Shown here: piece by piece, positions 4,289 through 48,257 of the stretch | Layout: each line of letters opens with the position of its first letter | How positions within the stretch are numbered: position 1 is the stretch's first letter | Source of the DNA: Elusimicrobiota bacterium | GTDB lineage: Bacteria > Elusimicrobiota > Elusimicrobia > UBA1565 > UBA9628 | Assembly (NCBI GenBank): GCA_028865585.1 | Contig: JAGWJU010000001.1 | Location: 1-48,257 of the forward strand | DNA length: 48,257 bases | Direction: 5' to 3' | The notes under the pieces: model-generated | Told to the model about the DNA's origin: nothing | Seen by the model: the letters and a program-made list of their open reading frames with translations, nothing else | Database searches by the model: none | Made by a program: the position numbers and the translations under genes

Positions 4289-4301
4289 CGGCTGACCGCG
4301 C

Positions 4302-9595: not shown

Positions 9596-9617
9596 GGGAA
9601 AAAGATCCCTTTTGGGG

Positions 9618-11996
9618 CTATCGGGGCTTCGCGCCGGCGAGGTTCGCGGAGACGCCCAGGCTCTTGGCCGAAGGCTTGCCGATCATGTCCGCCAGGACGT
9701 GCGCGGCTTCCTCGAGGACGAAGTCGGTCGGCGGGGGCGCGTGCGCGTAGCCCTTGGCGGAGGCGGAGGACGAGGAGACGGAGAACGCCGCGGCCTCGGC
9801 GGCCGAACTCGGCGGCGGCGCGGAAACCGACGCCGCGGGCTCCGGGGTTTGGGAAGCGGCGCTCTTGCCCGCCGCGCCCGCGGCCGTCGAGGTTGAAACC
9901 AGGGGATTGACGCCCGCGATGACGTCCTCAAGCGTGACGTCCGTGACGGTGAAAGGGGCGGCCGGCCGGGAGGCGCGCTCTTTTTTGCGCGCCTCGGCGC
10001 GCGCCTCGTTGGCCTTCTCTTCGGCCAAGCGGGCCTCGTAGTTGAGGGAGACGCTCTTGTCCTGCTTATGCTTCATGTAAAGAGCGATGTCCTGACGCAC
10101 GTACGCGAAGTCGGTCGAGACCGCGACGCGCTCCTCGGAGGCTTTCTGGAGCGCCGCGATCTCTCCCGCGGTGACGTCGTTTTTGGGCTCGTAGACGGCG
10201 GGCGCGATGTGATCGTAAGGGAGCGCGTTGGGAAGCGAGGACTCGGTCATGTCCAGCTCGTCGTCCAGTGACGGCAGCTGGATGTCGGGCGTCACGCCGC
10301 GATTCTGCGTCGAGCCGCCGGAGACGCGGTAGAATTTCTGGATGGTGATCTTGAGCGCGCCGGGGTTGTCCTTGCGCATGGACCAGGGCAGGTAGTCCGC
10401 GAGGTCGACGACGGACTGGACCGTGCCCTTGCCGAAGGTGCTCTTCTCCCCGACCACGACCGCGCGGCGGTAATCTTGAAGGGCCGCGGTCACGATTTCG
10501 GAGGCCGAGGCGGAGGCGCGGGTGGTCAGCACCACCATGGGGCCCGTGTACTCGGCCTGCGACTCGGGCGCGCGCAGGACCTCGACGCGGCCCTGGGAGT
10601 CCCGCACCTGCACGACCGGGCCGGGGCCGTCGAAGAGCCCGGCCATGGCCACGGCCTCGGCCAGCGATCCGCCGCCGTCGTTGCGCAAGTCCAGAATGAT
10701 GCCGGCGGCGCCTTGCTTCTCAAGGTAGGCGACCAGGCGGCTGACGTCCCTGGTGGCGCTGGTGCGCCCGTCCGGGCGCATGTCGGCGTAAAAAGAGGGG
10801 AGGTAGACCACGCCCAAACGCTCGGTCTTGCCGTCCTCGAGCGGCCAGGTGATGACCTGCGCGCGGGCTTCCTGGTCCTTGAGCTTGATGACCTCGCGGA
10901 TGATGTTCACGACCACGCGCGTCGCCGGATCGATGGCGTCGGCCGGGATGAGGCGCAGGCGCACGAGAGTGCCCTTTTTGCCGCGAATCATGTCCACCAC
11001 GTCGTCCAAGCGCATGCCCACGACGTCCACGAAGGAGCCTTCGCCCTGGGCCACTCCCACGATGCGGTCGTTGGGGTGGATTTGCTTGGACTTGTCCGCG
11101 GGGCCGCCCGGAACCAGGGAGACGATTTTGGCGTAGCCGCCGTCGGAACTCAGGACCGCGCCGATGCCCACAAGCGAGAGGCGCATGCTGATGTCGAAAT
11201 TGGCCTCGGTCGAGGCCGCCATGTAGTCGCTGTGCGGATCGTAGGTGCCCGCGAGCGCCGTTAGGTAAGCCTGCAGGACGTCGCTCGAGGCGAACTCCTT
11301 GTAGTAGGTCAGCAGGCGCTCGTAGCGCTGGACCACGTCCTTGATTTGGTCCTCGGGCTTGACCTTGTCGAGCATCTCTTCGAGCACGTCGTTCTTGAGG
11401 CGCTTTCTCCAAAGGTCCTTGGCGTCGCGTTCGTCGGAGGGCCAGGGCAGTTTTTCCCGATCCAGGATCACGCTTTCGTTTTTCTTAAAATCGAATATTT
11501 TATCGGGATTGACGAAGGCGGCGGAGGAGGCCAAGACGGAGTTCATGGCGGACAAAACCGTGGTCGAGGATTTTTCACCCGCTGTTTTCCCGACCGGAGG
11601 GGCGTGAAGGGTCCGCCGCACGAAGCGCACCCGCTCGCGCACGCGTTCCATGAAGCGGTTGAAGATGAAGTAGGCCGGCCCGACGTCGCCCGCCCGGACC
11701 ATCTGGGCCATGTCGTCTCCGAAGCGCGCCCGGAACTCGGCCGCGTCCGAACGCAGGAAAAACATCTTGTCGGGATCGAAATTCTGCAGGTAGAGCTTGA
11801 GCATGTCCCGGGACGTGGAGGCGTCCAGGGGTTTGTGTTCGTAATGGTCCTGCTCCAGGATGCGGGCCACGATTTGGCCGATGACGGGGCCGTCCTGACT
11901 CGGCTCCAGGGGCTTCTGCGGCGCCGCCTTGGCGGCGGCCAGCGGGGGAAAAAACAGGGCCGCGGCAAGAAGGAGGAGCGAAAGAGTCTTTTTCAA
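9618..11996 (-). CDS. prc: Tail-specific (C-terminal processing) protease, S41 family
   Basis: Prc N-terminal domain, PDZ, and [19 protein letters not shown]41 core, followed by a long Ala/Ser/Pro-rich C-terminal extension. Start set at TTG 11996, giving the textbook signal peptide (M)[23 protein letters not shown]. The alternative ATG at 12071 overlaps the upstream gene by 71 nt. Confidence 0.85.
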
Positions 11997-16556: not shown

Positions 16557-16566
16557 AGCCGCCGGC

Positions 16567-23134: not shown

Positions 23135-23866
23135 ATGCAGGGCGCGGTGCGATCCGCAGGACTTTTGATCCTGACCCTGGCCTTGGCATCGGGGGCCGTC
23201 CAGGCGTCTTCGGCTGCCGCGCCGCTCATCATCGCGGCGCGAAACGGCCAGCTTTCGGACGTGCTCGCGGACTTGGCTCAGGGCCAGAACCCCAACGTGA
23301 CCGATCCCTACGGCTACACGCCGGCCATGTGGGCCATTTCGCGGGGCGGTCTGCAGATTCTTCAGGCGCTCTTGAGCCAAGGGGCCAAGCTTCCCGCTGC
23401 GACCGCGAATTACGTCCCCATCATCGCCGCGGCTAAAAGCGGCAAGGCCGACGTCGTCGACTTTCTTTTGAAGCAGGGCGCCGCCGTCGACGCGCGGGAT
23501 TCCGCGGGGAACACCGCGCTCATCTGGGCCGCGCAGCGCGGCAACGCGGAGGTCGTCTCGACGCTGGTGTCCGCGCACGCCGATGTCAACGCCGCCAATA
23601 ATCGGGGGCAGACGCCGCTCATCCTGGCGGCCCAGTTGGGGGAGACCGATCTCGTCAACCTTCTCGCGAGCCAGAAGGCGGATTTGAACGTCCGCGATGA
23701 CTTCGGCTACACCGCGCTTATCTGGGCCGCGCACAACGGTTTTTCGGCGGCGGCCAAGGCCCTCATCGCCGCCGGAGCCGACCCGTCCATCGCGGGCAAG
23801 GACGGCCTGACCGCCAAGGCCGTGGCCCAACGCCGCGGCTACGCGGGTTTGGCGCAGTCCCTTTAG
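23135..23866 (+). CDS. Secreted ankyrin-repeat protein
   Basis: Signal peptide ..LLILTLALASGAVQA/S followed by ~6 ANK repeats (..G.TPLI.AA..G....V..LL..GA..N..). Confidence 0.85.
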   Translation: MQGAVRSAGLLILTLALASGAVQASSAAAPLIIAARNGQLSDVLADLAQGQNPNVTDPYGYTPAMWAISRGGLQILQALLSQGAKLPAATANYVPIIAAAKSGKADVVDFLLKQGAAVDARDSAGNTALIWAAQRGNAEVVSTLVSAHADVNAANNRGQTPLILAAQLGETDLVNLLASQKADLNVRDDFGYTALIWAAHNGFSAAAKALIAAGADPSIAGKDGLTAKAVAQRRGYAGLAQSL

Positions 23867-39551: not shown

Positions 39552-39625
39552 TCCCAGGTGGTGTAATGGTAACACAGCGGACTTTGAATCCGCTATTCCT
39601 GGTTCGAGTCCAGGCCTGGGAACCA
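39552..39625 (+). tRNA. tRNA-Gln (anticodon UUG), CCA encoded
   Basis: Acceptor stem TCCCAGG/CCTGGGA. Anticodon arm GCGGA-CTTTGAA-TCCGC places TTG at positions 34-36. T-arm CTGGTTCGAGTCCAG. 3' end is A-CCA. Confidence 0.9.
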
Positions 39626-39633
39626 GGGCGGCC

Positions 39634-41079
39634 ATGAAGCGCGGGCAAGCGCGGGAGCTGGGCGTGCTGGTCCTGGCCGCCGGCGCGGGCACGCGCATGG
39701 CCTCCGTCACGCCCAAGGTGCTCCACCCCATCGGCGGGCGGCCCATGATTTTCCACGTGCTGCGCGCGGCCAACGCCTTGAAGCCCGCCGAAATCGGCGT
39801 GGTCGTCGGCCACCAGGGCGACGCGGTCAAGTCCGCCTGCGAGGCCATGGCCAGGGACGGCGGCGTGGCGCGCCCGCTGGCTTTCGTGCGCCAGAAGGAG
39901 CCCAAGGGCTCGGCCGACGCGGTGATGACCTCCTTGTCCTTTCTCAAGAAGTTCAAGACCGCGGTGGTGCTCTGCGCCGACGCGCCCTTAATCACCTATG
40001 AGAGCCTCTACGCTCTTTTGCGCCTGCATCAGGAGCAGAAAAACCAGGTGACGTTTTTGACCGCGCGCGTGCGCAACCCGCGCGGCTACGGCCGCGTGGT
40101 GCGAAGCCCGTTGGGAGAGGTTCTGCGCATCGTCGAGGACGCGGTGGCCTCGTCCAAGGAGCTCTTGATTTCCGAGGTCAACTCCGGGGTCTACTGCTTC
40201 GAGACCTCGGCCCTGGCCGCGGCCTTGAAGGCGGTCTCGCCCAAGGGCCCCAAGAAGGAATTCTTCCTGACCGACGTCCTGGAGGTCGCGCGCGCCTCCG
40301 GCGGGCGCATCGGCGCGCATCTTCTGTCCTCGCCGGAGGAAATCGGCGGGGTCAACACGCGGGTGCAGCTCGCCGAGGCCCAGCGCCGCTTCAACCGCCG
40401 CATGCTCGAGCGCCTGATGCTCTCCGGCGTGACCGTCGTCGATCCGGCCTCGACCTGCGTCGACGCCGACGTCGAGGTGGGCCGCGACAGCGTGATTTGG
40501 CCGGGCACGGTCCTGCGCGGCAGGACCAAAATCGGCCGCGGCTGCGTCGTCGGCCCGCACTGCCTCATCGACGACTCCGAGGTGGGCGCCGAGTGCGAAA
40601 TCGAGATGTCGAGGCTTTTGCGCTGCCGCGTGCTCGAGAAGACCAGGGTGGGCCCCTTCGCGCACATCCGCGCGGACTCGGTCCTGGGCCCGCGCGCGCG
40701 GGTGGGCAACTTCAGCGAGCTTAAGGCCACGCGCCTGGGCGCGGGCTCCAAGGTCAACCACTTGAGCTACGTGGGCGACGCCGACGTCAAAGAGGACGTC
40801 AACATCGGCGCCGGCACGATTACCTGCAATTTCGACGGCCGCGCCAAGCACAAGACGACCATCGAGGCCCGGGCCTTCATCGGCTCCAACGCCACCATCG
40901 TGGCGCCCCTGCGCGTCGGTCGCGGGGCCCTGGTGGCCGCGGGCTCGACCATCGACGCGGACGTGCCCGCGGGCGCGCTCGCCTTCGGCCGCGCGCGGCA
41001 GGAGAACAAGCCCGGCCGCGCCAAGGACGGCCTGCTTTTAAACGGCGGCCGGAAAATCGCCGGAGGACGCCATGCCTAG
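39634..41079 (+). CDS. glmU: Bifunctional GlcNAc-1-P uridyltransferase / GlcN-1-P acetyltransferase
   Basis: LAAGAGTRM, N-terminal nucleotidyltransferase fold and C-terminal left-handed beta-helix hexapeptide repeats. Confidence 0.93.
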   Translation: MKRGQARELGVLVLAAGAGTRMASVTPKVLHPIGGRPMIFHVLRAANALKPAEIGVVVGHQGDAVKSACEAMARDGGVARPLAFVRQKEPKGSADAVMTSLSFLKKFKTAVVLCADAPLITYESLYALLRLHQEQKNQVTFLTARVRNPRGYGRVVRSPLGEVLRIVEDAVASSKELLISEVNSGVYCFETSALAAALKAVSPKGPKKEFFLTDVLEVARASGGRIGAHLLSSPEEIGGVNTRVQLAEAQRRFNRRMLERLMLSGVTVVDPASTCVDADVEVGRDSVIWPGTVLRGRTKIGRGCVVGPHCLIDDSEVGAECEIEMSRLLRCRVLEKTRVGPFAHIRADSVLGPRARVGNFSELKATRLGAGSKVNHLSYVGDADVKEDVNIGAGTITCNFDGRAKHKTTIEARAFIGSNATIVAPLRVGRGALVAAGSTIDADVPAGALAFGRARQENKPGRAKDGLLLNGGRKIAGGRHA

Positions 41080-42058
41080 GACCAAGGCCGCGCCCGCGCC
41101 GGCCAAGACCGAGCCCGTGCGCATCTTCCCGCGCTTCAAGATTTTCTCCGGCAACGCCAACCGGGCGCTCTCCGAGGACATCTGCCGCTACCTGGGCGCG
41201 GCCCCGGGCCGCGCGCGCGTCACGCGCTTCGCCGACGGCGAAATCAACGTGCAGATCGACGAGAACGTGCGGAGCATGGACTGCTACGTCGTCCAGCCCA
41301 CCTGCCGCCCGGTCAACGAGAACCTGATGGAGCTGCTCATCATGATGGACGCGCTGCGCCGCGCCTCGGCAGGGCGCATCACCGCGGTCATCCCCTATTT
41401 CGGCTACGCGCGCGCGGACCGCAAGACCGCGCCCCGCGTGCCCATCTCCTCCAAGCTCGTGGCCAACCTCATCACGGTCTCGGGCGCGCACCGCGTCATC
41501 ACGGTGGACCTGCACGCCGCGCAGATCCAGGGCTTTTTCGACATCCCGGTCGACCACCTCTACGCCGCGCCCATTCTCCTGGACTACATCCGCAAGAAGG
41601 GGCTTGAGGACCTGGTGGTGGTCTCGCCGGACGTGGGCGGCGTCGAGCGGGCTAGGGCCTTCGCCAAGCGCCTGGGCGCGCACCTGGTCATCATCGACAA
41701 GCGCCGGCCGCGGCCCAACGAGGCCTCGGTCTACAACATCATCGGCGACGTAGACGGCAAGACCGCGCTCATCCTGGACGACATGGTCGACACCGCGGGC
41801 ACGCTGACCAAGGTCGCCGCCAAAATCAAGGCCGCCGGCGCCCGGCGCATCTTCGCCGCCTGCTCGCACGGCGTGCTCTCCGGCCCCGCTTTGGATCTCA
41901 TCGAGAAGTCGGACATCGAGGAGATGATCCTCACCGACTCCATTCCCATCAGGAACCTGGACGGCGGGAAGTTCAAGGTCCTCTCCATCGCCCCTTTGAT
42001 GGGCGAGGCGATTTCACGCAACCACGAGGGCAAGTCCATCAGCGCCCTTTTCGTCTAA
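41072..42058 (+). CDS. prs: Ribose-phosphate pyrophosphokinase
   Basis: IFSGNAN..L, YFGYARADRK, DLHA.QIQGFF, PRPP loop LILDDMVDTAGT. Confidence 0.95.
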   Translation: MPRTKAAPAPAKTEPVRIFPRFKIFSGNANRALSEDICRYLGAAPGRARVTRFADGEINVQIDENVRSMDCYVVQPTCRPVNENLMELLIMMDALRRASAGRITAVIPYFGYARADRKTAPRVPISSKLVANLITVSGAHRVITVDLHAAQIQGFFDIPVDHLYAAPILLDYIRKKGLEDLVVVSPDVGGVERARAFAKRLGAHLVIIDKRRPRPNEASVYNIIGDVDGKTALILDDMVDTAGTLTKVAAKIKAAGARRIFAACSHGVLSGPALDLIEKSDIEEMILTDSIPIRNLDGGKFKVLSIAPLMGEAISRNHEGKSISALFV

Positions 42059-42079
42059 TATACTCGAGGTCAAAAAAAC

Positions 42080-42841
42080 ATGGAAGACATCAAATTGACG
42101 GCGGAAAAAAGGCCCTCCAAGGGCACCAAGAAGGATCTCTCGTCCCTGCGCGCGCGCCTGCGCGTGCCGGGCATCGTCTACGGCGAGGGCAAGCCGGAGA
42201 TTTTAGTGGAGGTGGCGGAGAAGGACATCCTCGCCGCGCGCAAGAAGGGCGGCGTCAACGCCATCCTGCACCTGGAGCTGGGCGGCGCGACCGAGACCGT
42301 CATCGTCAAGGAGCTCCAGAGGCATCCGGTTTCCTCCCAGCTCTGGCACGCGGACTTCCAGCGCATCTCCATGACCCGCAAGATCACGGCCAAGGTGCCG
42401 CTGCGCATCAAGGGCGAGGCGCCGGGCGTCAAGAACTCGGGCGGCGTGCTCCAGCACGAGCTGCGCGAGCTGACCTTAAAGGCCCTGCCCGCGAAGATTC
42501 CCCAGTTCATCGACGTGGACGTCTCGAACCTGGAGCTGCACAAGCACATCGCGGTCAAGGACCTGTCCCTGGGCGGCGACGTCGAAGTCGTGGAGGCTCC
42601 CGAGCACATCGTGGTGCACGTGACCATCGCCAAGGTCGAGGAAGCGGCTCCCGCTCCCGCGGCCGCGGACGCCGCCGCGGCGGGCGCGGCTCCGGCCGAA
42701 CCCGAGCTCAGCCAGGTCAAGGGCAAGAAGGACGAGGAAGGCAAGCCCTTGCCCAAGGAAGCCAAGGAGGGCGGCAAGGAAGGCGGCAAGGAAGCCGCCC
42801 CCAAGGGCAAAGAAGGCGGCGCGGCTCCGGCGAAGAAGTAG
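42080..42841 (+). CDS. rplY: 50S ribosomal protein L25/Ctc form with a long low-complexity C-terminal tail
   Basis: N-terminus ..KRPSKGTKKDLSSLRARLRVPGIVYG.. and the Ctc beta-barrel domain. The last ~60 aa are rich in Ala/Lys/Glu/Gly and contain a KEGGKE repeat. Confidence 0.85.
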   Translation: MEDIKLTAEKRPSKGTKKDLSSLRARLRVPGIVYGEGKPEILVEVAEKDILAARKKGGVNAILHLELGGATETVIVKELQRHPVSSQLWHADFQRISMTRKITAKVPLRIKGEAPGVKNSGGVLQHELRELTLKALPAKIPQFIDVDVSNLELHKHIAVKDLSLGGDVEVVEAPEHIVVHVTIAKVEEAAPAPAAADAAAAGAAPAEPELSQVKGKKDEEGKPLPKEAKEGGKEGGKEAAPKGKEGGAAPAKK

Positions 42842-42853
42842 CCGCGGACCCGC

Positions 42854-43420
42854 TTGGCGGAGCTGCGACTCGTCGTGGGCCTGGGCAACCCCGGCCCCCG
42901 CTACGCCCGCACGCGGCACAACGTCGGCTGGCGGCTGGTGGACTTTTTGGCCGGCCCGGACGCGGCCTGGAAGAACTTCAAGGGCCTGGGCGCCTGCGCG
43001 GACGCGGGAGGCTTTTTGCTGGCCAAGCCGGAGACCTTCATGAACGACTCGGGCCGCTTCGTGCGCGCCTTCGCGGCCTTCCGCCGGATTTCGCCCGCGG
43101 AAATCCTGGTCTGCTACGACGAGCTCGATTTGCCCTTCGGGCGCCTGCGCTTGAAGCCCTCCGGCTCCGCGGCCGGGCACAAGGGCATGGGCTCCATCAT
43201 CGCGGAGCTGGGCACCGAGGAGATTCCCCGGCTGCGCCTGGGCGTGGGGCCCAAGCCTCCCCAGGCCGACGGCGCGGCCTTCGTGCTGGGCCGCTTTTCC
43301 CCGGATGAGGAAAAAACCCTGGGCGGCGTGCTCGAGGCCGCGGCCCAGGCCGCGCGCCTGGCCCGGGCGGAAGGCCTGGAGGCGGCCATGAACCGCTTCA
43401 ACGGGGCGGCCGCGCCATGA
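42854..43420 (+). CDS. pth: Peptidyl-tRNA hydrolase
   Basis: LVVGLGNPGPRYARTRHNVGW, FMNDSG, GHKGM. TTG start. Confidence 0.9.
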   Translation: MAELRLVVGLGNPGPRYARTRHNVGWRLVDFLAGPDAAWKNFKGLGACADAGGFLLAKPETFMNDSGRFVRAFAAFRRISPAEILVCYDELDLPFGRLRLKPSGSAAGHKGMGSIIAELGTEEIPRLRLGVGPKPPQADGAAFVLGRFSPDEEKTLGGVLEAAAQAARLARAEGLEAAMNRFNGAAAP

Positions 43421-43635
43421 AGCCGCTGTTGCTCTCCCTGAGCGCCGTTTTTTTCCTGCTGGGCTTCGGCTATCTCTACCGCCCCGATCTGGTCTCCCGC
43501 CTGATGTCCTTCCTGCGCGACTACGTCTTGAACGACAGCCACATGATTCTGGAGCGCAAGAAGTGGGGGGCTTTTTTTCTGCTGGCGGGATTCTTCCTTC
43601 TTTACGTCGGCCTGGGCGGGATGGCGAGGCGCTAG
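43417..43635 (+). CDS. Small hypothetical membrane protein (2 predicted TM helices)
   Basis: 72 aa, ATGA overlap with the pth stop. Hydrophobic segments LLLSLSAVFFLLGFGYL and GAFFLLAGFFLLYVGLG. No family recognised. Confidence 0.45.
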   Translation: MKPLLLSLSAVFFLLGFGYLYRPDLVSRLMSFLRDYVLNDSHMILERKKWGAFFLLAGFFLLYVGLGGMARR

Positions 43636-43639
43636 CGCG

Positions 43640-44998
43640 GTGAAAGACTTAAAAGGCATGGCGGAGCAGGCTTTGGCGGACATCCGCGCGCGCCTGCCCG
43701 CGGGAGCGGAGGCGGAGATCTATCTCTCCCGCAGCGCCGGGCGCGGCGTCGAATTGCGCCGCGGCCGCCTGGACGCCGTGGAGGACTCCGAATCCTCCGG
43801 CGCGGGCCTGCGCGTCATCCACGAGGGGCGCGCGGGCTTCGCCTCCTGCGGCGGCCTGGAGCCGGAAAAAATACGCGGGCTCGCCGCGCCCGCGCTGGCC
43901 CAGCTCAAGCACTCCTCCGGCGACTATTTCCGCGCGTTCGCGCCGGCGGCCGCGGCGGAGGGCGCTCCGGCGGGTCCCCTGGCGGCGACGCTTTGGGACG
44001 AGTCCGTGCTCACCGGCCCCTGGAAGGAAAAAGAGGAGAGCTTGAAGGCCCTGTGCGCGGCGGCGCAAGCCGCGGACAAGCGCGTGGGCGACGTTCTGCG
44101 CGCGGGCTATCACGAAGGGCGCGGGGAGAGCGCGACGGCCAACACGCGGGGGCTTCTCTCCTGCGAGCGCGGCACCTTCGCGGGCGCCGGCGCCTCGGTC
44201 CTGGCTCTTCAGGACGGCGAACGCCAAATCGGCTCCTCCTCGGCCTCGGCCCGGAAGGGCGGCGGCTTCGACTTCAAGCGCCTGGGCGAAACGGCCGCGC
44301 GGCGCGCCTGCGCGCTTTTGGGCGCGCGCCAGGCTCCCAGCGGGCCCCGCGCCGTGATTTTCGATCCGTGGATTTCCGGCGAGTTCGTCGACTTGATCGC
44401 GGATCTCCTGTGCGCCGACGCGGTCCAGAAGGGCAAGTCGCTCATGGCCAGGAAGGTCGGCCTCAAGGTCGCCTCGCCCCTGGTCACCTTCGTCGACGAT
44501 CCGCGGCTGCCCGGCGGGACGGCCAGCTCCCTCTACGACGACGAGGGCTGCGCGACCAAGCGCAAGACCATGATCAAGGACGGCATCCTGCAGGACTACT
44601 TCTACGACGTGTATTGCGCCAATAAGGACGGCCGGCGCACCAACGCCAGCGCCGCGCGCGGCTCCTACCGCGGCCGGCCCGGGCCGGCCGCCTCCAATTT
44701 TTACCTCGCGCCCGGCAAGGACAAGCGCGACGACATCATCGCCGGGACCAAGAAGGGCGTCCTGGTCCTGGAGGTCATGGGCATGCACACGGTGGATCCC
44801 GTCTCCGGGGAGTTTTCCATTGGGGTCTCGGGCCTGGAGATAGACGGCGGCCGCCTGGGCGCGCCTCTGCGCTCGGCCATGATTTCCGGGAACCTGCTCG
44901 ACGTGCTCTCCCGCGTCGACGCCGTCGGCTCGGACCTCGCCTTCTACGGCTCCACGGGCGCGCCCACCTTCCGCGTCGCCGAGCTCTCGGTCGCCTAG
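43640..44998 (+). CDS. pmbA: TldD/PmbA-family metalloprotease
   Basis: 452 aa, GTG start. ..SGAGLRVIHEGRAGFA.., C-terminal GVLVLEVMGMHTVDPVSGEFSIGVSGLEIDGG. Confidence 0.85.
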   Translation: MKDLKGMAEQALADIRARLPAGAEAEIYLSRSAGRGVELRRGRLDAVEDSESSGAGLRVIHEGRAGFASCGGLEPEKIRGLAAPALAQLKHSSGDYFRAFAPAAAAEGAPAGPLAATLWDESVLTGPWKEKEESLKALCAAAQAADKRVGDVLRAGYHEGRGESATANTRGLLSCERGTFAGAGASVLALQDGERQIGSSSASARKGGGFDFKRLGETAARRACALLGARQAPSGPRAVIFDPWISGEFVDLIADLLCADAVQKGKSLMARKVGLKVASPLVTFVDDPRLPGGTASSLYDDEGCATKRKTMIKDGILQDYFYDVYCANKDGRRTNASAARGSYRGRPGPAASNFYLAPGKDKRDDIIAGTKKGVLVLEVMGMHTVDPVSGEFSIGVSGLEIDGGRLGAPLRSAMISGNLLDVLSRVDAVGSDLAFYGSTGAPTFRVAELSVA

Positions 44999-45009
44999 CC
45001 GGACGGCCG

Positions 45010-45127
45010 CCGGCGCTCCGAAACCCGTCCGCCCCCGAACCCCGGGAAACCCATCCCGGGTTTCCCTCCGGCCTTCGGCCGGAGCCTCCCTTCCCCACGG
45101 GGTCCGGCCTGGTTTTCGGAGCGCCGG
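45010..45127. repeat. Structured repeat, module 1, copy A (14-bp outer stem enclosing a conserved 53-nt segment plus extra hairpins)
   Basis: CCGGCGCTCCGAAA (45010-45023) pairs perfectly with TTTCGGAGCGCCGG (45114-45127). Inner hairpins are GGGAAACCC/GGGTTTCCC (45044-45066) and CTCCGGCC-TTC-GGCCGGAG (45066-45084). Positions 45013-45065 match the reverse complement of 47281-47333 at 48/53 by hand alignment. Confidence 0.8.
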
Positions 45128-45173
45128 CATGGACCTTCTCTTCTCTGCTTCGGCGCGGTTTCTCTTCGTCAAC

Positions 45174-45255
45174 GCCCGGGACGGGCGCGATCCGGAGCGA
45201 GATGAGCCCGAGAGCGCTCTTGACGGGGCGAGCGCAGGACGCGCCCGTCCCGGGC
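45174..45255. repeat. Structured repeat, module 2, copy A (16-bp perfect stem, 50-nt loop with a conserved 40-nt apex)
   Basis: GCCCGGGACGGGCGCG (45174-45189) pairs with CGCGCCCGTCCCGGGC (45240-45255). The apex 45195-45234 matches the reverse complement of 47187-47226 at 37/40. Confidence 0.8.
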
Positions 45256-45289
45256 GCAAACGCAAGGGCAAACAGCGCCGGCGGGTCCG

Positions 45290-45721
45290 CTAGCGCGCGA
45301 TCCGGTTGACGACCACGTCGGCCTGGCTGGAGCCGTTGGGCACGGGGTCGGGGCGGCGCCCTTCCAGGTCGCCGGGCCGGAGCTTGCCCACGTCTCCGCG
45401 AGAGTTTTCCTCCACTTCGATGAGGAAGGGCCCGCCGGGCGGCCCGCCCGGCAGCAGCAGATCGGGAGCGCCTAGGCGGTAGAAGACCGGAAAGACGGGA
45501 TTGACCACGCGGCGCACGGCCACGGGCACGCCGCCCATGTTCTTGGCGACGACGAAGAGGACCGAGTTGGGGCGCTGGGCGCGGGAGCGCAGCGGGGTCG
45601 AGACCGTGACCGTGCCCGAGAGCGAGAAGCCCCTGGCCCGGCAGGCGCCCAGGGCCAGCGCGGCGGCGGCGCCGGCCGCCAGGAGGACGCGGGCGCGCGA
45701 AGCCCGGACCGCCCGGGTCAC
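45290..45721 (-). CDS. Hypothetical lipoprotein
   Basis: GTG start in a GTGA overlap with the upstream gene. Lipobox-like ..AAALALGAC. No catalytic motif recognised. Confidence 0.5.
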   Translation of the reverse strand: MTRAVRASRARVLLAAGAAAALALGACRARGFSLSGTVTVSTPLRSRAQRPNSVLFVVAKNMGGVPVAVRRVVNPVFPVFYRLGAPDLLLPGGPPGGPFLIEVEENSRGDVGKLRPGDLEGRRPDPVPNGSSQADVVVNRIAR

Positions 45722-46506
45722 GCCGGCGCGGTTTCCTGGTGTTCCGGCCTCAGGGCCAGGTAGAGATAGGCGCCGGTGACGGCCAGGGCGACCAGGGAGA
45801 ACAGCGGGATGCGCGCGGGCATGAAGAGGAAGATGATCTGCACCGCGATGATGAGCGTCTGGGCGTAGGCCGAGAGGTTGAAGAGCTCGGCGTAGGCCCG
45901 CCCGGCGTGGAGCGCGTTGTTCAAGGCCATCGCGACCAGGGAGTAGAAGAGCGAGGAGACGAGCTTCCAGACCAGGAACACCACGAAAAGCCCGAAGATC
46001 GCGGCGGGGTAGAGGATGCGGTTCAAGAGCGCGCCCGCCTCCTTGTAGAAGGCGGCGTCCAGGGTCACGGGCTTCTCGGTCTTGGTGTCCGAAAAGCTGC
46101 GGTCCTCGATGGTGCCGTTGGGCCGGCGCAGGTAGAAGTCGGACTGGGTCAGGTAGGCCGTCACCCCCGAGTCGTCCATGTCCTTCTCCGTGACGGGCGC
46201 GGTGCGGGTCGTGTCGATGGCCACGGCCACGTCCTGGTAGGCGGGATCGCGCAGCACCACGGGCATGGCCGCGGGCGAGGTGAACTTGCCGTTGTCGAAG
46301 GTCAGGACCGGCGCGGACTTGGCCAGCCAGTCGAAGGTCTGATCCAGGGCGGGACCGACGCGGACTTTCAAAGCGACGGCGCCCAGGACGCAGAAAATCG
46401 CGGCCAGGTACACGAGGTAGAGCAAGGTGCGGGAGAAGGCCTGCTTGGCGATCTTCCGGTAGAAAGAGACGCTGGTAATCGCGTTGACGGGATCGAGGAG
46501 AATCAT
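45718..46506 (-). CDS. DUF1189/YvdJ-like polytopic membrane protein
   Basis: N-terminus ..SVSFYRKIAKQAFSRTLLYLVYLAAIFCVLGAV.. followed by an extracytoplasmic loop and 4-5 more TM helices, matching the DUF1189 layout as I recall it. Confidence 0.6.
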   Translation of the reverse strand: MILLDPVNAITSVSFYRKIAKQAFSRTLLYLVYLAAIFCVLGAVALKVRVGPALDQTFDWLAKSAPVLTFDNGKFTSPAAMPVVLRDPAYQDVAVAIDTTRTAPVTEKDMDDSGVTAYLTQSDFYLRRPNGTIEDRSFSDTKTEKPVTLDAAFYKEAGALLNRILYPAAIFGLFVVFLVWKLVSSLFYSLVAMALNNALHAGRAYAELFNLSAYAQTLIIAVQIIFLFMPARIPLFSLVALAVTGAYLYLALRPEHQETAPA

Positions 46507-46512
46507 GGGCCT

Positions 46513-46542
46513 AGTTTAGCACGGGCGGCTTCGCGCGCGCAA
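46513..46542 (-). promoter_or_regulatory. Sigma70-like promoter with extended -10 (TTGCGC-18-TGcTAAACT), leaderless
   Basis: Minus strand reads TTGCGC (46542-46537), 18-nt spacer, TGC then TAAACT (46518-46513), then 6 nt to the ATG at 46506. Confidence 0.5.
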
Positions 46543-46566
46543 ATGCTCCGCACGGCGCGCGGCGGC

Positions 46567-46596
46567 TTGACAGGGGCGCGGTCGGGAGGCTACCCT
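46567..46596 (+). promoter_or_regulatory. Sigma70-like promoter (TTGACA-18-TACCCT), leaderless rfbC
   Basis: TTGACA at 46567-46572, 18-nt spacer, TACCCT at 46591-46596, then 7 nt to the GTG at 46604. Confidence 0.5.
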
Positions 46597-46603
46597 TTGA
46601 GGC

Positions 46604-47167
46604 GTGAACTTCAAAACCTCGCCCGCGGCCCTGCCCGAGGTCCTGCTTGTTGAGTTCGGGCGCATCCAGGACGAGCGCGGATTTTTCGCCGAGACGTATA
46701 AGGAAAAGGACTTCGCGGCCCTAGGCTTGCCGCGCTTCGTGCAGGACAACGCGTCCCGCTCAGCCCAAGGCATTCTGCGCGGCCTGCACTACCAGTTGAA
46801 CCCCGCCGCGCAGGGCAAACTGGTGCGCTGCACGCGCGGCCGCGTCTTCGACGCCGCGGTGGACATCCGAAAGGACTCGCCGCGCTGGGGCAAGTGGGCC
46901 GCGGTCGAGCTTTCCGAGGACAAGCCCCTCATGATCTACGTGCCGCCCGGCTTCGCGCACGGCTTTTTGGCCTTGACCGACGGCGCCGAGGTGCTCTACA
47001 AGACGACCGCGTATTACTCGCCCGAGCACGAGCGGTGCCTTTTGTGGAACGACCCGGCCGTGGGCGTCCCCTGGCCGATCAGGGAGCCCGCCCTCTCGCC
47101 CAGGGACGCGCGCGCGCCGCTCTTGAAGGACGCCGAGACGAACTTCGAGTTCGCGTTCCCGCTCTAG
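46604..47167 (+). CDS. rfbC: dTDP-4-dehydrorhamnose 3,5-epimerase
   Basis: DERGFF.E, RGLHYQ, QGKLVRC..G.VFDAAVDIRK.SP..GKW, PPGFAHGF, typical RmlC cupin motifs. GTG start. Confidence 0.92.
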   Translation: MNFKTSPAALPEVLLVEFGRIQDERGFFAETYKEKDFAALGLPRFVQDNASRSAQGILRGLHYQLNPAAQGKLVRCTRGRVFDAAVDIRKDSPRWGKWAAVELSEDKPLMIYVPPGFAHGFLALTDGAEVLYKTTAYYSPEHERCLLWNDPAVGVPWPIREPALSPRDARAPLLKDAETNFEFAFPL

Positions 47168-47250
47168 CGGTTGCGGCCTGTCCCCTCGCTCGCCCCGTCA
47201 GGAGCGTTGTCGGGCTCATCTCGCTCGGTGACCAAGCCGCAACCGCTAGA
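47163..47250. repeat. Structured repeat, module 2, copy B (15-bp perfect stem, 58-nt loop), inverted relative to copy A
   Basis: TCTAGCGGTTGCGGC (47163-47177) pairs with GCCGCAACCGCTAGA (47236-47250). The left arm contains the rfbC stop codon TAG (47165-47167). Confidence 0.8.
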
Positions 47251-47268
47251 GACTCCGGACTGGATTTG

Positions 47269-47338
47269 AGCGGGCGCCCCGGAAACCCGGGATGGGTTTC
47301 CCGGGGTCCGGGGACGGCCGGGTTCCGGGGCGCCCGCT
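47269..47338. repeat. Structured repeat, module 1, copy B (14-bp outer stem), inverted relative to copy A
   Basis: AGCGGGCGCCCCGG (47269-47282) pairs with CCGGGGCGCCCGCT (47325-47338). It holds the 26-nt core GGAAACCCGGGATGGGTTTCCCGGGG (47281-47306), the exact reverse complement of 45040-45065. The right arm overlaps the ferredoxin stop codon. Confidence 0.8.
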
Positions 47339-47627
47339 AGCCCAGGAGATCGCGCAGGATTTCGGGCGCGTCCTCGGGCTTGACGCCCGAGCGCCACTCG
47401 CCGCCCGGGTAGACGAAGAGGTTGGGGCCGTGCGCGCACAAATCGAGGCAGCCGGACTTGGCCACGCGGATTTTGCCCTTCAAGCCCGCGTCCTTGACCG
47501 CTTTCTTGAGCGCCTCGCAGAGCTCCGCGCCGCCGCGGCCGGGGTTGGCGCAGGCCTCGCGCCCGTCCGTGCGGACGTTGGCGCAGACGAAGACCGTCTT
47601 TTGGTAGGGGACGCTTTTCTTTTCCAT
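47337..47627 (-). CDS. Thioredoxin-like [2Fe-2S] ferredoxin
   Basis: ORF 47337..48233 trimmed to ATG 47627 (MEKKSVPYQKTVFVCANVR..). Cys pattern C-x10-C ... C-x3-C (VFVCANVRTDGREACAN ... SGCLDLCAHGP), as in the Trx-fold ferredoxin family. The rest of the ORF is antisense to the DegT-like gene. Confidence 0.75.
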   Translation of the reverse strand: MEKKSVPYQKTVFVCANVRTDGREACANPGRGGAELCEALKKAVKDAGLKGKIRVAKSGCLDLCAHGPNLFVYPGGEWRSGVKPEDAPEILRDLLG

Positions 47628-47654
47628 GCGTTTTTCGGGGCCCCGGACGCCATA

Positions 47655-48257
47655 ATGTACAATATCCGCGTGCTGAAAACGTCCGTCGGCGTGGGCGCTC
47701 TGCGCGTCGGGCCGCGCGGCCGCCGCTACGTCCAAGAGGCGCTCCTGGCCAACCGCCTGTCCTACGGCCCCTTCACCCGCCGCTTCGAGGCCCTCTTCGC
47801 GCGCCTGCACGGCTGCCGTCATGCGGCGTTCTGCAGCTCCGGGACCAGCGCCCTGCACGTCGCCCTGCAGGCGCTCAAGGAGAAATACCGCTGGAAAGAC
47901 GGCGACGAGGTGCTGGTCCCGGCGGTGAGCTTCGTGGCCACGGCCAACGTGGTCCTGCACAACCGCCTGCGCCCGGTCTTCGTGGACGTGCGCCAGGACA
48001 CCTACAACGTCAACCCCGAGCTCATCGAGCGCAGAATCGCGCGCCGGACCCGCGCCGTCATCCCGGTGCACCTGATGGGCCTGCCCGCGGAGATGCCGGC
48101 CATCCTCGCGATTGCGCGGCGGCGGGGCCTGAAGGTCATTGAGGACTCCTGCGAGGCGATGTTCGTCAAAAGCGGCGGCAGGCCCGTGGGCTCGATGGGG
48201 GACGTCGGCTGCTTTTCCACCTACGCGGCCCATTACGTCACGACCGGCGTGGGGGGC
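47655..48257 (+). CDS. DegT/DnrJ/EryC1/StrS-family sugar-modifying enzyme, N-terminal ~200 aa (3' end beyond window). His occupies the usual PLP-lysine position.
   Basis: Not in the ORF track because it is open at the window end. My translation reads MYNIRVLKTSVG..YVQEALLANRLSYGPFTRRFEALFARLHGCRHAAFCSSGTSALHVALQAL..GDEVLVPAVSFVATANVV..PVFVDV..TYNV..AVIPVHLMG..VIEDSCEAM..GSMGDVGCFSTYAAHYVTTGVGG. The start is either ATG 47655 or GTG 47670 (6 nt after TACAAT at 47658-47663). Confidence 0.85.
   Translation, partial: MYNIRVLKTSVGVGALRVGPRGRRYVQEALLANRLSYGPFTRRFEALFARLHGCRHAAFCSSGTSALHVALQALKEKYRWKDGDEVLVPAVSFVATANVVLHNRLRPVFVDVRQDTYNVNPELIERRIARRTRAVIPVHLMGLPAEMPAILAIARRRGLKVIEDSCEAMFVKSGGRPVGSMGDVGCFSTYAAHYVTTGVGG

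Follow-up and report, generated by a model that had tools for sequence, protein, structure and literature searches.

Two gaps between convergent genes in one Elusimicrobiota contig contain the same GC-rich palindromic sequence, read in opposite directions. What is this sequence, and how did it come to lie at both places? The contig (JAGWJU010000001.1) was analysed over positions 1 to 48,257, and this whole stretch is referred to here as the window. A first-pass annotation had described the pair as inverted copies, A and B, of a single structured module (m1), and had suggested a REP/BIME-like element, a bidirectional terminator without a U-tract, or a small non-coding RNA.

Two inverted copies of a composite element

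The 26-nt core of m1, CCCCGGGAAACCCATCCCGGGTTTCC, is present exactly twice, at 45040-45065 (+) and 47281-47306 (-), as had been claimed. None is expected from 100 dinucleotide shuffles, even when 3 mismatches are allowed. The inverted similarity between the copies reaches 57 nt at 89% (45009-45065 / 47281-47337). Both of the 14-bp outer stems described previously are perfect on direct reading, and an inverted-repeat search lengthens them, to 18 nt at 94% in copy A (5' arm 45009-45026, 3' arm 45111-45128, enclosing the earlier 45010-45023 and 45114-45127) and to 19 nt at 95% in copy B (47269-47287 and 47320-47338, enclosing the earlier 47269-47282 and 47325-47338). Alignment of the stem arms of A and B gives three differences (C to G, T to C and A to G), each compensated on the partner arm, again in agreement with the first-pass annotation. 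Neither copy has a U-tract terminator, none being called on either strand and no run of T following the stems. No sigma-70-like promoter was called at copy A or copy B.

Module 1 is not the stand-alone unit that it was taken for. It forms half of a composite in which m1 is followed by a variable linker and another hairpin module, m2. In a listing of the 25 longest inverted-repeat pairs of the 48-kb window, only the stems of m1 and m2 are local pairs of 94% or more. This composite unit, the duplicated stop-codon tetranucleotide at its junctions and the flips in its orientation had all been missed in the first pass.

Copy A is a long form of the element (44999-45289, + strand) consisting of m1, linker, m2 and tail. 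Convergent flanks had been reported for both copies, and are found. Copy A occupies the entire gap from the stop codon of a PmbA/TldD-family gene (43640-44998, +) to that of a gene for a 143-residue Ig-like protein (45290-45721, -), and it is flanked by two copies of CTAG, of which the left (44995-44998) includes the PmbA TAG stop and the right (45290-45293) includes the stop of the Ig-like gene, which reads CTA on the + strand. Inside m1, the conserved C-rich lead GCCCCCGAA (45031-45039) stands immediately upstream of the core, and the core holds a hairpin GGGAAACCC/GGGTTTCCC (45044-45052 / 45058-45066). The long-form segment (45066-45098) then begins with the 8-bp hairpin CTCCGGCC-TTC-GGCCGGAG, located at 45066-45084 as annotated, and continues as an unpaired C-rich tract, CCTCCCTTCCCCA. 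The linker, defined by alignment of copies, runs from 45129 to 45172. The m2 stem is a perfect 17 bp (arms 45173-45189 and 45240-45256, the latter from the inverted-repeat search and covariation) and encloses a 40-nt core at 45195-45234, made up of GAGCGAGATGAGCCCG, 10 variable nt and TGACGGGGCGAGCG. All of these parts lie on the + strand, as do the terminal inverted repeats: cggacGgccgccggcgct on the left (45001-45018) overlaps the 5' arm of the m1 stem, is partly used in the fold of copy A, and pairs with agcgccggcgggtccg on the right (45272-45288, read from the sequence). The right repeat is also the third copy of a short motif, ccggcgct/agcgccgg, which is thus repeated three-fold in copy A.

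Copy B is a short form (47168-47336, - strand), inverted with respect to A, with m2, linker and m1 in that order on the + strand. It likewise fills a whole gap, from the stop of the dTDP-4-dehydrorhamnose 3,5-epimerase (RmlC) gene (46604-47167, +) to that of a 298-aa gene (47337-48233, -), the product of which has a C-terminus like thioredoxin-like ferredoxin and a weak match to DUF1636. The CTAG that carries the RmlC TAG stop (47164-47167) is also inside the m2 stem, whose arms (47162-47180 and 47233-47251, both -) are 19 nt long and 95% complementary; a third CTAG lies in the second arm, at 47246-47249. At the other end, the CTAG with the stop of the 298-aa gene (47337-47340) contributes its first two positions, 47337-47338, to the outer end of the m1 stem 3' arm. 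The m2 core (47187-47226, -) equals that of copy A at 37 of its 40 positions, and the m1 core is the same.

A small family in Elusimicrobia

Further copies were sought in genome and metagenome collections, using the exact m1 core or the m2 pattern. The idea of a dispersed intergenic repeat family held: further copies were found, all of them in Elusimicrobia MAGs and metagenome contigs. Among 185,579 species-representative genomes, just 2 contain the exact m1 core, with 1-2 matches in each. Of the ten metagenome matches to the pattern, eight fall by chance within coding sequence; their spacers are 7, 19 or 20 nt long, and m1 is absent. There are no matches in viral contigs, plasmids or phages, nor in 5,426 E. 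coli genomes (blastn, 'distant' mode), and nhmmer searches with m1 and m2 profiles (--max) of 188 kb around the matched loci gave no copies beyond those known. In total, m1 is represented by 8 distinct copies and m2 by 7; they occupy four loci, and the Elusimicrobia genomes that carry them are related and number about four. The copy count appears low, with 2 in the 48-kb contig.

The element is 140-291 nt long. In m1 a variable stem of ~14-25 bp surrounds a conserved C-rich loop with the 26-nt core, and in m2 a variable stem of ~17-25 bp surrounds a conserved 40-nt loop; as hairpins, the modules measure ~70-120 nt, their stems being 14-25 bp and their loops 26-90 nt long. The order from m1 to m2 is constant. 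The linker between them ranges from 0 to 48 nt, and neither its length nor its sequence is kept among copies. Only at the rearranged site A of one related genome, L001, is m1 found without m2, and the module X that replaces it there has no second copy in the sequence around the matched loci. The segment originally described as a 47-nt insertion in copy A proves to be the majority form, present in 5 of 8 copies, with copy B and two others being short; the short form in L002 resembles a deletion between CCGGCC and CCGGCT repeats. The hairpin of the long form has a fixed stem and a loop that differs among copies (TTC, TTA or GCA).

At the gathering thresholds of Rfam 15, the window yields a tRNA and nothing else. 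When copy A and the copy in L002 were scanned permissively, the matches were weak and well below gathering scores, and were to models of long hairpins and of unrelated small RNAs. The element contains no conserved ORF. A small protein read across the m1 core from an antisense ATG was considered and rejected, the peptides being 16-19 aa long and differing among copies, and the upstream GGAGG being absent from copy B; the ATG in m2 fares no better as a start codon, being CTG in L003. A hammerhead-like reading of the m2 core (GAUGAG ... GCGAG), made by eye, fails at the C3/U4 and G12-A13-A14 positions. A literature search on intergenic palindromes of Elusimicrobia found nothing relevant. The conclusion is that this is a small, previously undescribed, non-coding two-hairpin repeat family, and a further instance of a type of bacterial repeat that is already familiar.

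Stems keep their pairing and loops their sequence

Both strands of each copy fold better than their shuffles, with z-scores from -4.7 to -8.1. The sense strand, read from m1 to m2, scores better (-6.5 and -8.1) than the antisense strand (-4.7 and -4.9), although m1 alone folds slightly better antisense.

In the m2 stem, 93.8% of cells are paired, against 34-44% in slid controls. Double changes are found at 16 of 20 m2 arm pairs (26 pairs counted overall), a result that 0 of 500 shuffles equalled, and at ~9 homologous positions in the m1 stem. The extra copies therefore gave more compensatory changes, not fewer, and support the proposal that a nucleic-acid structure is selected here, with pairing rather than sequence being kept. 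Wobble cells in m2 favour the sense strand by 10 to 2, these cells not being independent, and the m1 arms have no strand bias in their wobble pairs.

The loops behave differently: the 26-nt m1 core and the 40-nt m2 core are near-invariant, whereas the stems vary among copies yet remain paired. The contrast can be calibrated at orthologous loci. At the locus called here site C, the neighbouring gene is 70% identical at four-fold degenerate sites between L003 and L009; in the same comparison m1 is ~91% identical (a hand count on the alignment), the m2 core is identical at 29 of 30 positions outside its central 10 nt, and the m2 arms are ~65% identical with pairing retained. Similarly, m1 of the window and the inverted copy in L001 share 94% identity, where the neutral level is 81%. 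The loops are constrained above four-fold degenerate sites, and the stems change at about the neutral rate while staying paired. Such conservation of the cores in place is not expected of a purely selfish insertion and points to a possible function at the level of the host or of RNA.

In the consensus fold of m2, the pairs G30-C66 and C31-G65 are followed by an asymmetric internal loop and then by GCCC/GGGC. A K-turn consists of a canonical stem, a 3-nt bulge, tandem sheared G.A/A.G pairs and a non-canonical stem. The innermost residues of the m2 internal loop could form tandem G.A/A.G pairs, leaving a bulge of 5 nt where the canonical one has 3. Covariation is silent on this K-turn-like motif, and on the GGGAAACCC/GGGUUUCCC helix of m1, because the core pairs never vary.

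Insertion sites and orientation

Relatives with empty sites are available at three of the loci, and in them the convergent stop codons overlap as CTAG, CTAA or TTAG. The filled site A of the window has the sequence gtcgcCTAG[291 nt]CTAGcgcgcg; its empty orthologue in L014 is gtcgcCTAGcgcacc. At site C, L003 and L009 carry the element, and L017 lacks it and has stop codons that overlap as CTAA; the filled junctions are CTAG and CTAA in L009, and in L003 CTAG on the left and no more than a TTA stop on the right. At site D the element is confined to L002/L006, with junctions TTGA (left) and TTAG. Four other lineages are empty there: the genes overlap by CTAG in L019, by TTAG in L021 and by 14 nt in L022/L023 (where the junction was not read), and in L018 a gap of 13 nt separates them. 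Comparison of filled and empty sites A, C and D thus gives the pattern of a target-site duplication, an outcome that retention of stops would also favour; the flanking tetranucleotides could partly reflect selection for two stops rather than the specificity of an enzyme.

The window contains 20 occurrences of CTAG where 144 are expected, a depletion of ~7-fold; most are at TAG stops, and 5 of the 20 flank or sit within the two elements. Enrichment of TAG at the flanks was considered as independent proof of the target and was set aside, since TAG accounts for 18 of the 43 stops in the window and there are four independent sites, so that the enrichment is not significant. The terminal inverted repeats are imperfect (~16 nt in copy A, 13/15 in L009, ~10/13 in the site B copy of L001), and none was seen on reading the sequences of copy B, L003 and L002; the termini vary among copies. 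An origin of the stem arms by copying of the local flank was suggested by matches of 9-11 nt, such as GCGCGATCCGG at 45185 and 45295, and was rejected because the flanks of other sites match equally well or at greater length, up to 12 nt.

L001 is ~91% identical to the window and collinear with it, and the orientation of the element is flipped at both orthologous sites. At site A, m1 is inverted and 94% identical to the window copy. At site B the element is a long form that runs the other way, and its stem arms resemble those of copy A. Recombination between two of the ccggcgct/agcgccgg copies would yield the right-hand junction seen in L001. A pair of successive inversions between A and B was also considered, by reasoning only, and rejected, because recombination between inverted copies swaps the inner parts and never the orientation of either copy.

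Comparison with known repeats

REPs are units of 20-40 nt with a conserved GTAG or CGTC tag, in tens to hundreds of copies, and REP/BIME are dispersed extragenic palindromes, mainly downstream of genes and between convergent or co-directional ORFs (PMC3733652). The family described here resembles REP, BIME and REPIN sequences in consisting of probably transcribed hairpins in either orientation, joined as composites of hairpin and linker (PMC3733652). It differs in that its modules are ~70-120 nt, its copy number appears low, and it is the loops and not the stems that are conserved. The GTAG/CGTC tag is not visible at the hairpin feet in alignments checked by eye only; the feet differ among copies, and the flanking CTAG, CTAA or TTAG belongs to stop codons. 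In the pieces of 2-21 kb around the matches there is no RAYT (Y1 HUH transposase) gene. The label 'REP/BIME-like' therefore survives as an analogy, in that the copies are scattered palindromes outside coding sequence, placed at the 3' ends where genes converge, but fails on the REP features tested, and judged by these features the family is not a member of REP/BIME.

ERIC (IRU) and the Neisseria Correia/NEMIS elements are imperfect palindromes of 100-160 bp, found in transcribed intergenic regions in both orientations with TA duplications. They have long and short variants that arise by internal insertion or deletion, and as folded structures in mRNA they influence its stability or termination. 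The likeness extends to size class, long and short forms, a TA-containing target, orientation variability and 3'-UTR location. However, ERIC and Correia elements form one long hairpin from conserved terminal repeats, whereas this element has two separate hairpins in which the stems vary and the loops are conserved; its copy number appears much lower, and its target is specifically an overlapping pair of convergent stops. The search of E. coli genomes gave no similarity to REP, BIME or ERIC sequences.

IS5-group elements duplicate a 4-bp YTAR target. According to a passage in PMC2170065 that cites Tenzen & Ohtsubo (1991), IS630 prefers TA within CTAG and duplicates the TA. As in IS630/Tc1-mariner or IS5 MITEs, the element is small, non-coding and insertion-polymorphic, and its CTAG, CTAA and TTAG junctions fit either pattern. 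Unlike them, it has no common conserved terminal inverted repeat, and its loops are more conserved than its ends, where a typical MITE shows the opposite. Pneumococcal BOX elements are modular boxA-boxB-boxC repeats that form stable intergenic secondary structures and are transcribed. They share with this family a modular, composite and structured repeat; they belong to another host phylum, have another sequence and exceed 100 copies, and are not known to target stop-codon overlaps.

The ends of IS200/IS605 elements and PATEs have different left and right subterminal hairpins, no real terminal inverted repeats and a tetra- or pentanucleotide target, and in IS200/IS605 a right-end cleavage site matching the target would mimic a duplication. 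Their hairpins are short, with small loops, and similar on left and right, whereas the loops here are 26-40 nt and unrelated. No TnpA or TnpB gene was found near the copies at the examined loci. Finally, intrinsic terminators share with the element a GC-rich hairpin directly after a stop codon, and a palindrome can act both ways; but in the element neither strand carries a U-tract, the stems greatly exceed the usual length, the loops of 26-40 nt are conserved, and the same sequence recurs at unrelated loci.

Origin and function of the element

What has to be explained is a repeat family with a covarying structure, insertion polymorphism with a flanking tetranucleotide, flips of orientation and loops conserved in place. 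On balance we lean, by a little, towards a low-copy, clade-restricted, non-autonomous, MITE-like mobile palindromic element that would work in the manner of REP, ERIC or Correia repeats. The element would insert at a tetranucleotide YTAR (CTAG, CTAA or TTAG) formed by overlapping convergent stop codons, and the tetranucleotide would be restored on either flank, and therefore both genes would retain a stop. The inserted element would then sit in the 3' untranslated region of both converging transcripts, where its long GC-rich hairpins may fold as a two-way barrier or as a structure that protects the 3' end. Compensatory substitution would maintain the pairing, and sequence-specific selection would maintain the loops, presumably through the binding of some factor. 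We consider that the element is probably transcribed as a 3'-end hairpin, and we infer both its role as a terminator or stabiliser and the existence of a mobilising enzyme.

Several observations count against a mobile element. The conserved parts are the loops and not the ends, opposite to a classical MITE, the terminal inverted repeats are weak and inconsistent, and copies appear to be few. The 2-21-kb pieces around the matches contain neither a transposase gene nor a full-length parent element.

An alternative that we regard as unlikely is a dispersed family of structured non-coding RNAs, either small RNAs derived from the 3' UTR or protein-binding RNAs, in which the loops do the work and the stems are scaffolds. 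The C-rich strands of m1, CCCCCGAA and CCUCCCUUCCCCA, could pair with G-rich sequences of the Shine-Dalgarno type, and the tandem G.A of the m2 loop makes a K-turn-like motif possible. This reading draws on the constraint on the loops over nearly neutral but paired stems, the wobble pairs of m2 that favour the m1-to-m2 strand, the better z-scores of that strand, and the long-form hairpin with its fixed stem; the best Rfam alignment of the C-rich tract, which is non-significant, is to CcsR1, an sRNA with a CCUCCUCCC motif. Yet there is no space for a dedicated promoter outside the element and none was called inside it, a U-tract terminator is absent, the better antisense fold of m1 alone runs the other way, no Rfam family reaches threshold, and the invariant core pairs offer no covariation for either of the motifs named above. 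The flipping of orientation relative to the flanking genes among close relatives would also be odd for a 3'-UTR RNA tied to its gene.

The element could instead work as DNA, the hairpins or cruciforms and their conserved loops being sites for a DNA enzyme or binding protein; we think this improbable. The enzyme might be an invertase or an HUH/Y1 transposase (IS200/IS605 or RAYT type), which recognises hairpins of single-stranded DNA; a topoisomerase or nucleoid protein at work between the convergent genes is another candidate. The perfect stems would then result from palindrome-templated repair (template switching) rather than from selection on RNA. In favour are the perfect 9-bp inverted repeat with a 5-nt spacer in the m1 core, as for the binding site of a dimer, the good folding on both strands, the unbiased wobble pairs of the m1 arms, and the inversion in place at orthologous sites together with the short repeats that fit the right junction of L001. 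Two distinct subterminal hairpins with weak or absent terminal inverted repeats also recall the ends of IS200/IS605-type elements, but the two loops are unrelated, unlike the similar left and right hairpins of those elements, and no gene for such an enzyme adjoins any copy at the examined loci. The strand bias of the m2 wobble pairs stands against this reading too, though weakly, because folded single-stranded DNA would show the same bias.

That bidirectional terminators arose independently at each junction, in place, with their shared sequence due to convergence or chance, is effectively refuted: every copy does lie between convergent genes and forms strong GC-rich hairpins, but (near-)identical 26- and 40-nt cores occur at four unrelated loci where none is expected and relatives have empty sites, the hairpins have no U-tract, and four other confidently called convergent junctions in the contig have no hairpin. 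Those four pairs overlap by 4 nt or lie 10-13 nt apart, and for this reason the element, as far as the window allows it to be judged, is not the usual or general terminator of the genome.

To return to the mobile palindrome favoured above, we see some chance, and a small one, that it is more than just selfish, being a mobile module of structured RNA or single-stranded DNA whose two large loops are its selected functional parts. This could take two forms. One possibility is a regulatory RNA borne in the 3' UTR, with C-rich strands resembling an anti-Shine-Dalgarno sequence and a protein-binding m2 loop. The other is a non-autonomous element of a new kind, which might be recognised through its hairpin loops and not its termini, and which might home to overlapping convergent stops.

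Significance

The family offers a clear case, from an uncultured phylum, of a small mobile palindrome that lands, in a highly compact genome, where it seems to do no harm. The landing site is the 4-nt overlap of convergent stop codons, rebuilt on each flank. Repeats of this type can interrupt metagenome assemblies or put parts of them in the wrong orientation, and at present neither gene finders nor RNA databases annotate them. The combination of invariant loops with stems that are nearly neutral but paired is unusual for a MITE or REP. It makes exaptation as an RNA element a reasonable possibility, and it provides natural data on compensatory evolution. If it is true that the loops bind a host factor or a new kind of transposase, the interest of the family rises; as matters stand it is a new family of a familiar class.

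A composite element of two hairpin modules

The hairpin module flagged in the first-pass annotation (m1) has a 26-nt core, CCCCGGGAAACCCATCCCGGGTTTCC, at 45040-45065 (+) and 47281-47306 (-). No third core was found in the window with up to three mismatches allowed, and shuffled sequences lead one to expect none. The two inverted copies, A and B, match over 57 nt at 89%, and their outer stems are perfect over 14 bp in both, reaching 18-19 nt at 94-95% when extended by inverted-repeat search. Cores and stems (45010-45127 and 47269-47338) are as the annotation described them. So is their setting in gaps between convergent genes, PmbA and an Ig-like gene at site A and RmlC and a ferredoxin-like gene at site B, with no U-tract at either copy; no sigma-70-like promoter was found at copies A and B.

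A second inverted pair adjoins m1 (45195-45234 and 47187-47226, 40 nt at 93%) and has its own near-perfect closing stems, at 45173-45189/45240-45256 in copy A and 47162-47180/47233-47251 in copy B. The real unit is therefore a composite of m1, a linker and a second module, m2, which fills the whole stop-to-stop space at 44999-45289 (+) and at 47168-47336 (-). Of the 25 longest inverted-repeat pairs listed for the 48 kb, the four m1 and m2 stems are the only local ones that reach 94%.

The m1 outer stem is variable (about 14-25 bp) and encloses a conserved C-rich lead (G[C/U]CCCCCGRA), followed by the core with its helix GGGAAACCC/GGGUUUCCC. The 47-nt segment that had been called an insertion in copy A is indeed there, but it belongs to the majority form: the long m1, with an extra hairpin CUCCGGCC-loop-GGCCGGAG and an unpaired CCUCCCUUCCCCA tract, is found in five of eight copies. 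The short forms are copy B and those at two related loci, L002 and L014, and the L002 junction looks from its sequence like a deletion between CCGGCC and CCGGCT. Module m2 has a stem of 17-25 bp around GAGCGAGAUGAGCCCG, 10 variable nt and UGACGGGGCGAGCG, and the linker, of 0-48 nt, is barely alignable among copies.

The antisense strand of the m1 core and lead (45040-45065 (-); 47281-47315 (+)) reads GGGATGGGTTTCCCGGGGTTCGGGGG, a canonical four-run G-quadruplex motif, and an i-motif is possible on the sense strand, which may be incidental in a genome of ~68% GC. An exact 11-nt direct repeat, GCGCGATCCGG, lies at the foot of the m2 stem of copy A (45185-45195) and outside the element, at the 3' end of the Ig-like gene (45295-45305). 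It was rejected as special, equal-length matches to the flanks of other sites placing it within the background of GC-rich sequence.

Copies and distribution

Among 185,579 species-representative genomes only two contain the m1 core without mismatch, and both belong to Elusimicrobia (loci L001, L002 and L003). A pattern scan for m2 in metagenome contigs yielded two more loci, L006, which is identical to L002, and L009; its eight remaining matches lay inside coding sequence and were put down to chance. L014 and L016-L023 were obtained by following flanking proteins into related assemblies. The claim of a repeat is borne out by these further copies; with those of the window there are eight distinct m1 and seven distinct m2 at four loci in all. 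Besides sites A and B these are site C, between a SpoU/TrmJ-like gene (assigned by eye from its translation) and a RecD-like helicase, and site D, between YraN and a 549-aa predicted membrane protein, possibly a glycosyltransferase (more distant homologs: PF13231/PF02366). The module order is m1 then m2 in all, and every element lies between convergent genes. A profile search of 188 kb of sequence, related loci included, gave no extra copy, which makes this a low-copy family, and nothing similar was found in viral contigs, plasmids, phages, E. coli genomes or Rfam.

Nucleotide identities suggest a tree in which the organism of the window pairs with Org2 ('clean11', ~91%) and Org3 (SMAG_U13921/Ga0307373) with its sister Org6 (~87%), at ~82% between the pairs, with two more distant genomes at ~77% and ~74%.

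Insertion at overlapping stop codons

Site A is empty in the syntenic locus L014 (~81%), where PmbA and the Ig-like gene share 4 nt, gtcgcCTAGcgcacc; the window reads gtcgcCTAG[291 nt]CTAGcgcgcg. Site C is filled in L003 and L009, the latter reading ...gcCTAG[element]CTAAgg...; L017 has no element there, and its stops overlap as CTAA. Site D is filled only in Org3; elsewhere there is a CTAG overlap (L019/L020), a TTAG overlap (L021), a 14-nt overlap (L022/L023) or a 13-nt gap (L018), so that by parsimony the element was gained after Org3 split from its 87% sister. The 13 nt between the stops in L018 (11648-11660, CTAGccaacgccgcgctCTAc; Org2), where other relatives have a 4-nt overlap, might be what a lost element left behind, as a footprint or remnant, or no more than a short spacer.

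Three independent filled/empty comparisons thus put the element precisely where two convergent stops overlap as YTAR. This tetranucleotide flanks the element on both sides, except that the left side of site D is TTGA and the right side in L003 only a TTA stop. Selection to keep both stops is not fully separable here from the specificity of an enzyme, because an insertion survives only with both stops kept, and the enrichment of TAG at the flanks is not significant by itself.

CTAG is depleted about 7-fold in the window, with 20 occurrences where base composition predicts 144. Most of them coincide with TAG stops, and five flank or fall within the two elements. GTAC is also depleted (35 against 144); candidate causes are repair bias and the avoidance of restriction. 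This is a very compact genome, and convergent genes here usually overlap at their stops or sit 10-13 nt apart (4289-4301, 16557-16566). The stop overlaps at 971-974 (CTAG) and 23863-23866 (TTAG) look like unoccupied targets. No terminator hairpin was found between the genes at any of these four junctions.

Folding and covariation

Both strands of both copies fold far better than shuffled sequences, with z of -6.5 and -8.1 on the m1-to-m2 strand and -4.7 and -4.9 on the opposite one. In the alignment of seven m2 sequences 93.8% of cells are paired, and 16 of 20 arm pairs have changes on both sides (26 pairs were counted in all). None of 500 shuffles reached any of the pairing measures, and sliding the partner by 1-3 columns lowered pairing to 34-44%. 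For m1, with pairs taken from each copy's own fold by homologous 5' column, double changes occur at about nine positions (for example U-A/G-C/C-G, C-G/U-A/A-U and G-C/U-A). All three stem differences between copies A and B are matched on the partner arm, as had been noted, and a G-C to U-A exchange is directly visible between the orthologous copies at site C. The covariation in both modules and this exchange give good support to the earlier inference that pairing is conserved rather than sequence. The core pairs are invariant and so say nothing either way about pairing in the core.

As to strand, ten m2 stem cells are G.U on the m1-to-m2 strand (A.C on the other) and two are the reverse, the cells not being independent, and m2 pairing is 93.8% sense against 89.2% antisense, a modest signal. 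For m2, a folded single strand in the m1-to-m2 sense, RNA or DNA alike, is favoured. The m1 arms show no strand bias, and m1 alone folds slightly better in antisense. Two further features are only leads: one way of drawing the m2 loop gives a K-turn-like motif whose bulge is 5 nt, and the C-rich tracts of m1 recall anti-Shine-Dalgarno sRNA loops, with a weak alignment to CcsR1 (Rfam).

Turnover and neighbouring genes

L001 (Org2) is collinear with 41616-48257 of the window at ~91%. At site A it has an unrelated segment of 128 nt that forms a hairpin, X (3396-3523), and after it an oppositely oriented m1, which shares 94% identity with the window copy and has one extra G in the core. X takes the place of m2, folds into a long imperfect hairpin of its own (tggcgcgggt ... 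acccgcgcca) and is perhaps a module of a third type; no second copy was found in the window and related loci. At site B, L001 has a long-form m1 with m2, oriented oppositely to the window and L014, and its stem arms resemble copy A (82% over 250 nt) rather than copy B. Types of m2 arm are common to different loci, one to copy B, L009 and L002 and another to copy A and site B of L001, which implies that the arms travel with the element. Copying of the arms from local flanks failed its control. Two successive A-B inversions were considered for the flip; by reasoning, they leave orientation unchanged. Copy A contains the motif ccggcgct/agcgccgg three times (45010, 45120, 45272), and recombination between the outer inverted pair would give the right-hand junction of L001, gcggacgggtttcggagcgccggc.

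Other differences were seen nearby. A tRNA-Gln(ttg) (39552-39625) lies just upstream of the GlmU-like gene (39634-41079). In L014 (1-2229) Prim-Pol, PC4, HTH_17 and phage-integrase genes precede the same gene, suggesting an integrative element that the window lacks. L014 also has a 294-aa ankyrin-repeat gene (8840-9724) between the DUF1189 and RmlC genes, where the window has only a 97-nt divergent gap (46507-46603). In L002, from Org3, two close 134-nt segments (5893-6026 and 6082-6215) are ~76% identical, seen as off-diagonal BLAST matches of L002 with L006.

Nature of the element and selection after insertion

The element is a clade-restricted, low-copy, non-coding two-hairpin repeat, polymorphic in insertion and orientation, that lands on overlapping convergent stop codons and maintains its pairing. 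It would be mobilised in trans by an enzyme not seen at these loci. IS5-type insertion duplicates YTAR. The junctions are compatible with this or with IS630-type targeting, IS630 being directed at the TA in CTAG (reference cited in PMC2170065). An HUH/Y1 enzyme would be another fit, to the weak termini and the conserved hairpins in subterminal position. Once inserted, the element would be transcribed at the 3' ends of both converging genes, its GC-rich hairpins acting as a two-way barrier or as 3'-end protection. Such a role has been proposed for ERIC and Correia repeats, and also for REP repeats (PMC3733652).

The element works like REP/BIME, ERIC, Correia and BOX elements and MITEs. Like a MITE it is small, multi-copy and without coding capacity, and has a target duplication; however, it lacks consistent terminal inverted repeats and a known parent element. 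The first-pass annotation was right about a selected structure and a repeat family, but not about a plain terminator or about belonging to REP/BIME. The unit size does not suit REP and the low copy number seems not to, there is no GTAG or CGTC tag by eye, and no similarity to E. coli repeats was found. Nor is the element the terminator that this genome ordinarily uses: at the four other convergent junctions called with confidence in the window, the genes overlap by 4 nt or sit 10-13 nt apart.

When L003 is compared with L009, the adjacent helicase gene has 69.7% identity at its four-fold degenerate sites, m1 is ~91% identical over ~118 nt (our own count on the alignment), and the m2 core is identical at 34 of 40 positions, or 29 of 30 without the central 10 nt; the m2 arms, at ~65%, still pair. 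Likewise the m1 of the window and the inverted m1 of L001 are 94% identical, against 81% at four-fold sites. The stems thus evolve at about the neutral rate under a pairing constraint, while the loops are constrained in sequence and the linker is unconstrained. Such a pattern is not what one would predict for an insertion that is purely selfish and decaying. It is explained either by a function of the loops, for the host or in mobility together with gene conversion between copies, or by templated correction of palindromes. It seems unlikely that the element is a functional RNA centred on its loops, or a mobile hairpin whose loops are what is recognised. With no Rfam family matching it, the element is a mobile intergenic palindromic repeat, of a known class, with an unusual pattern of conservation.
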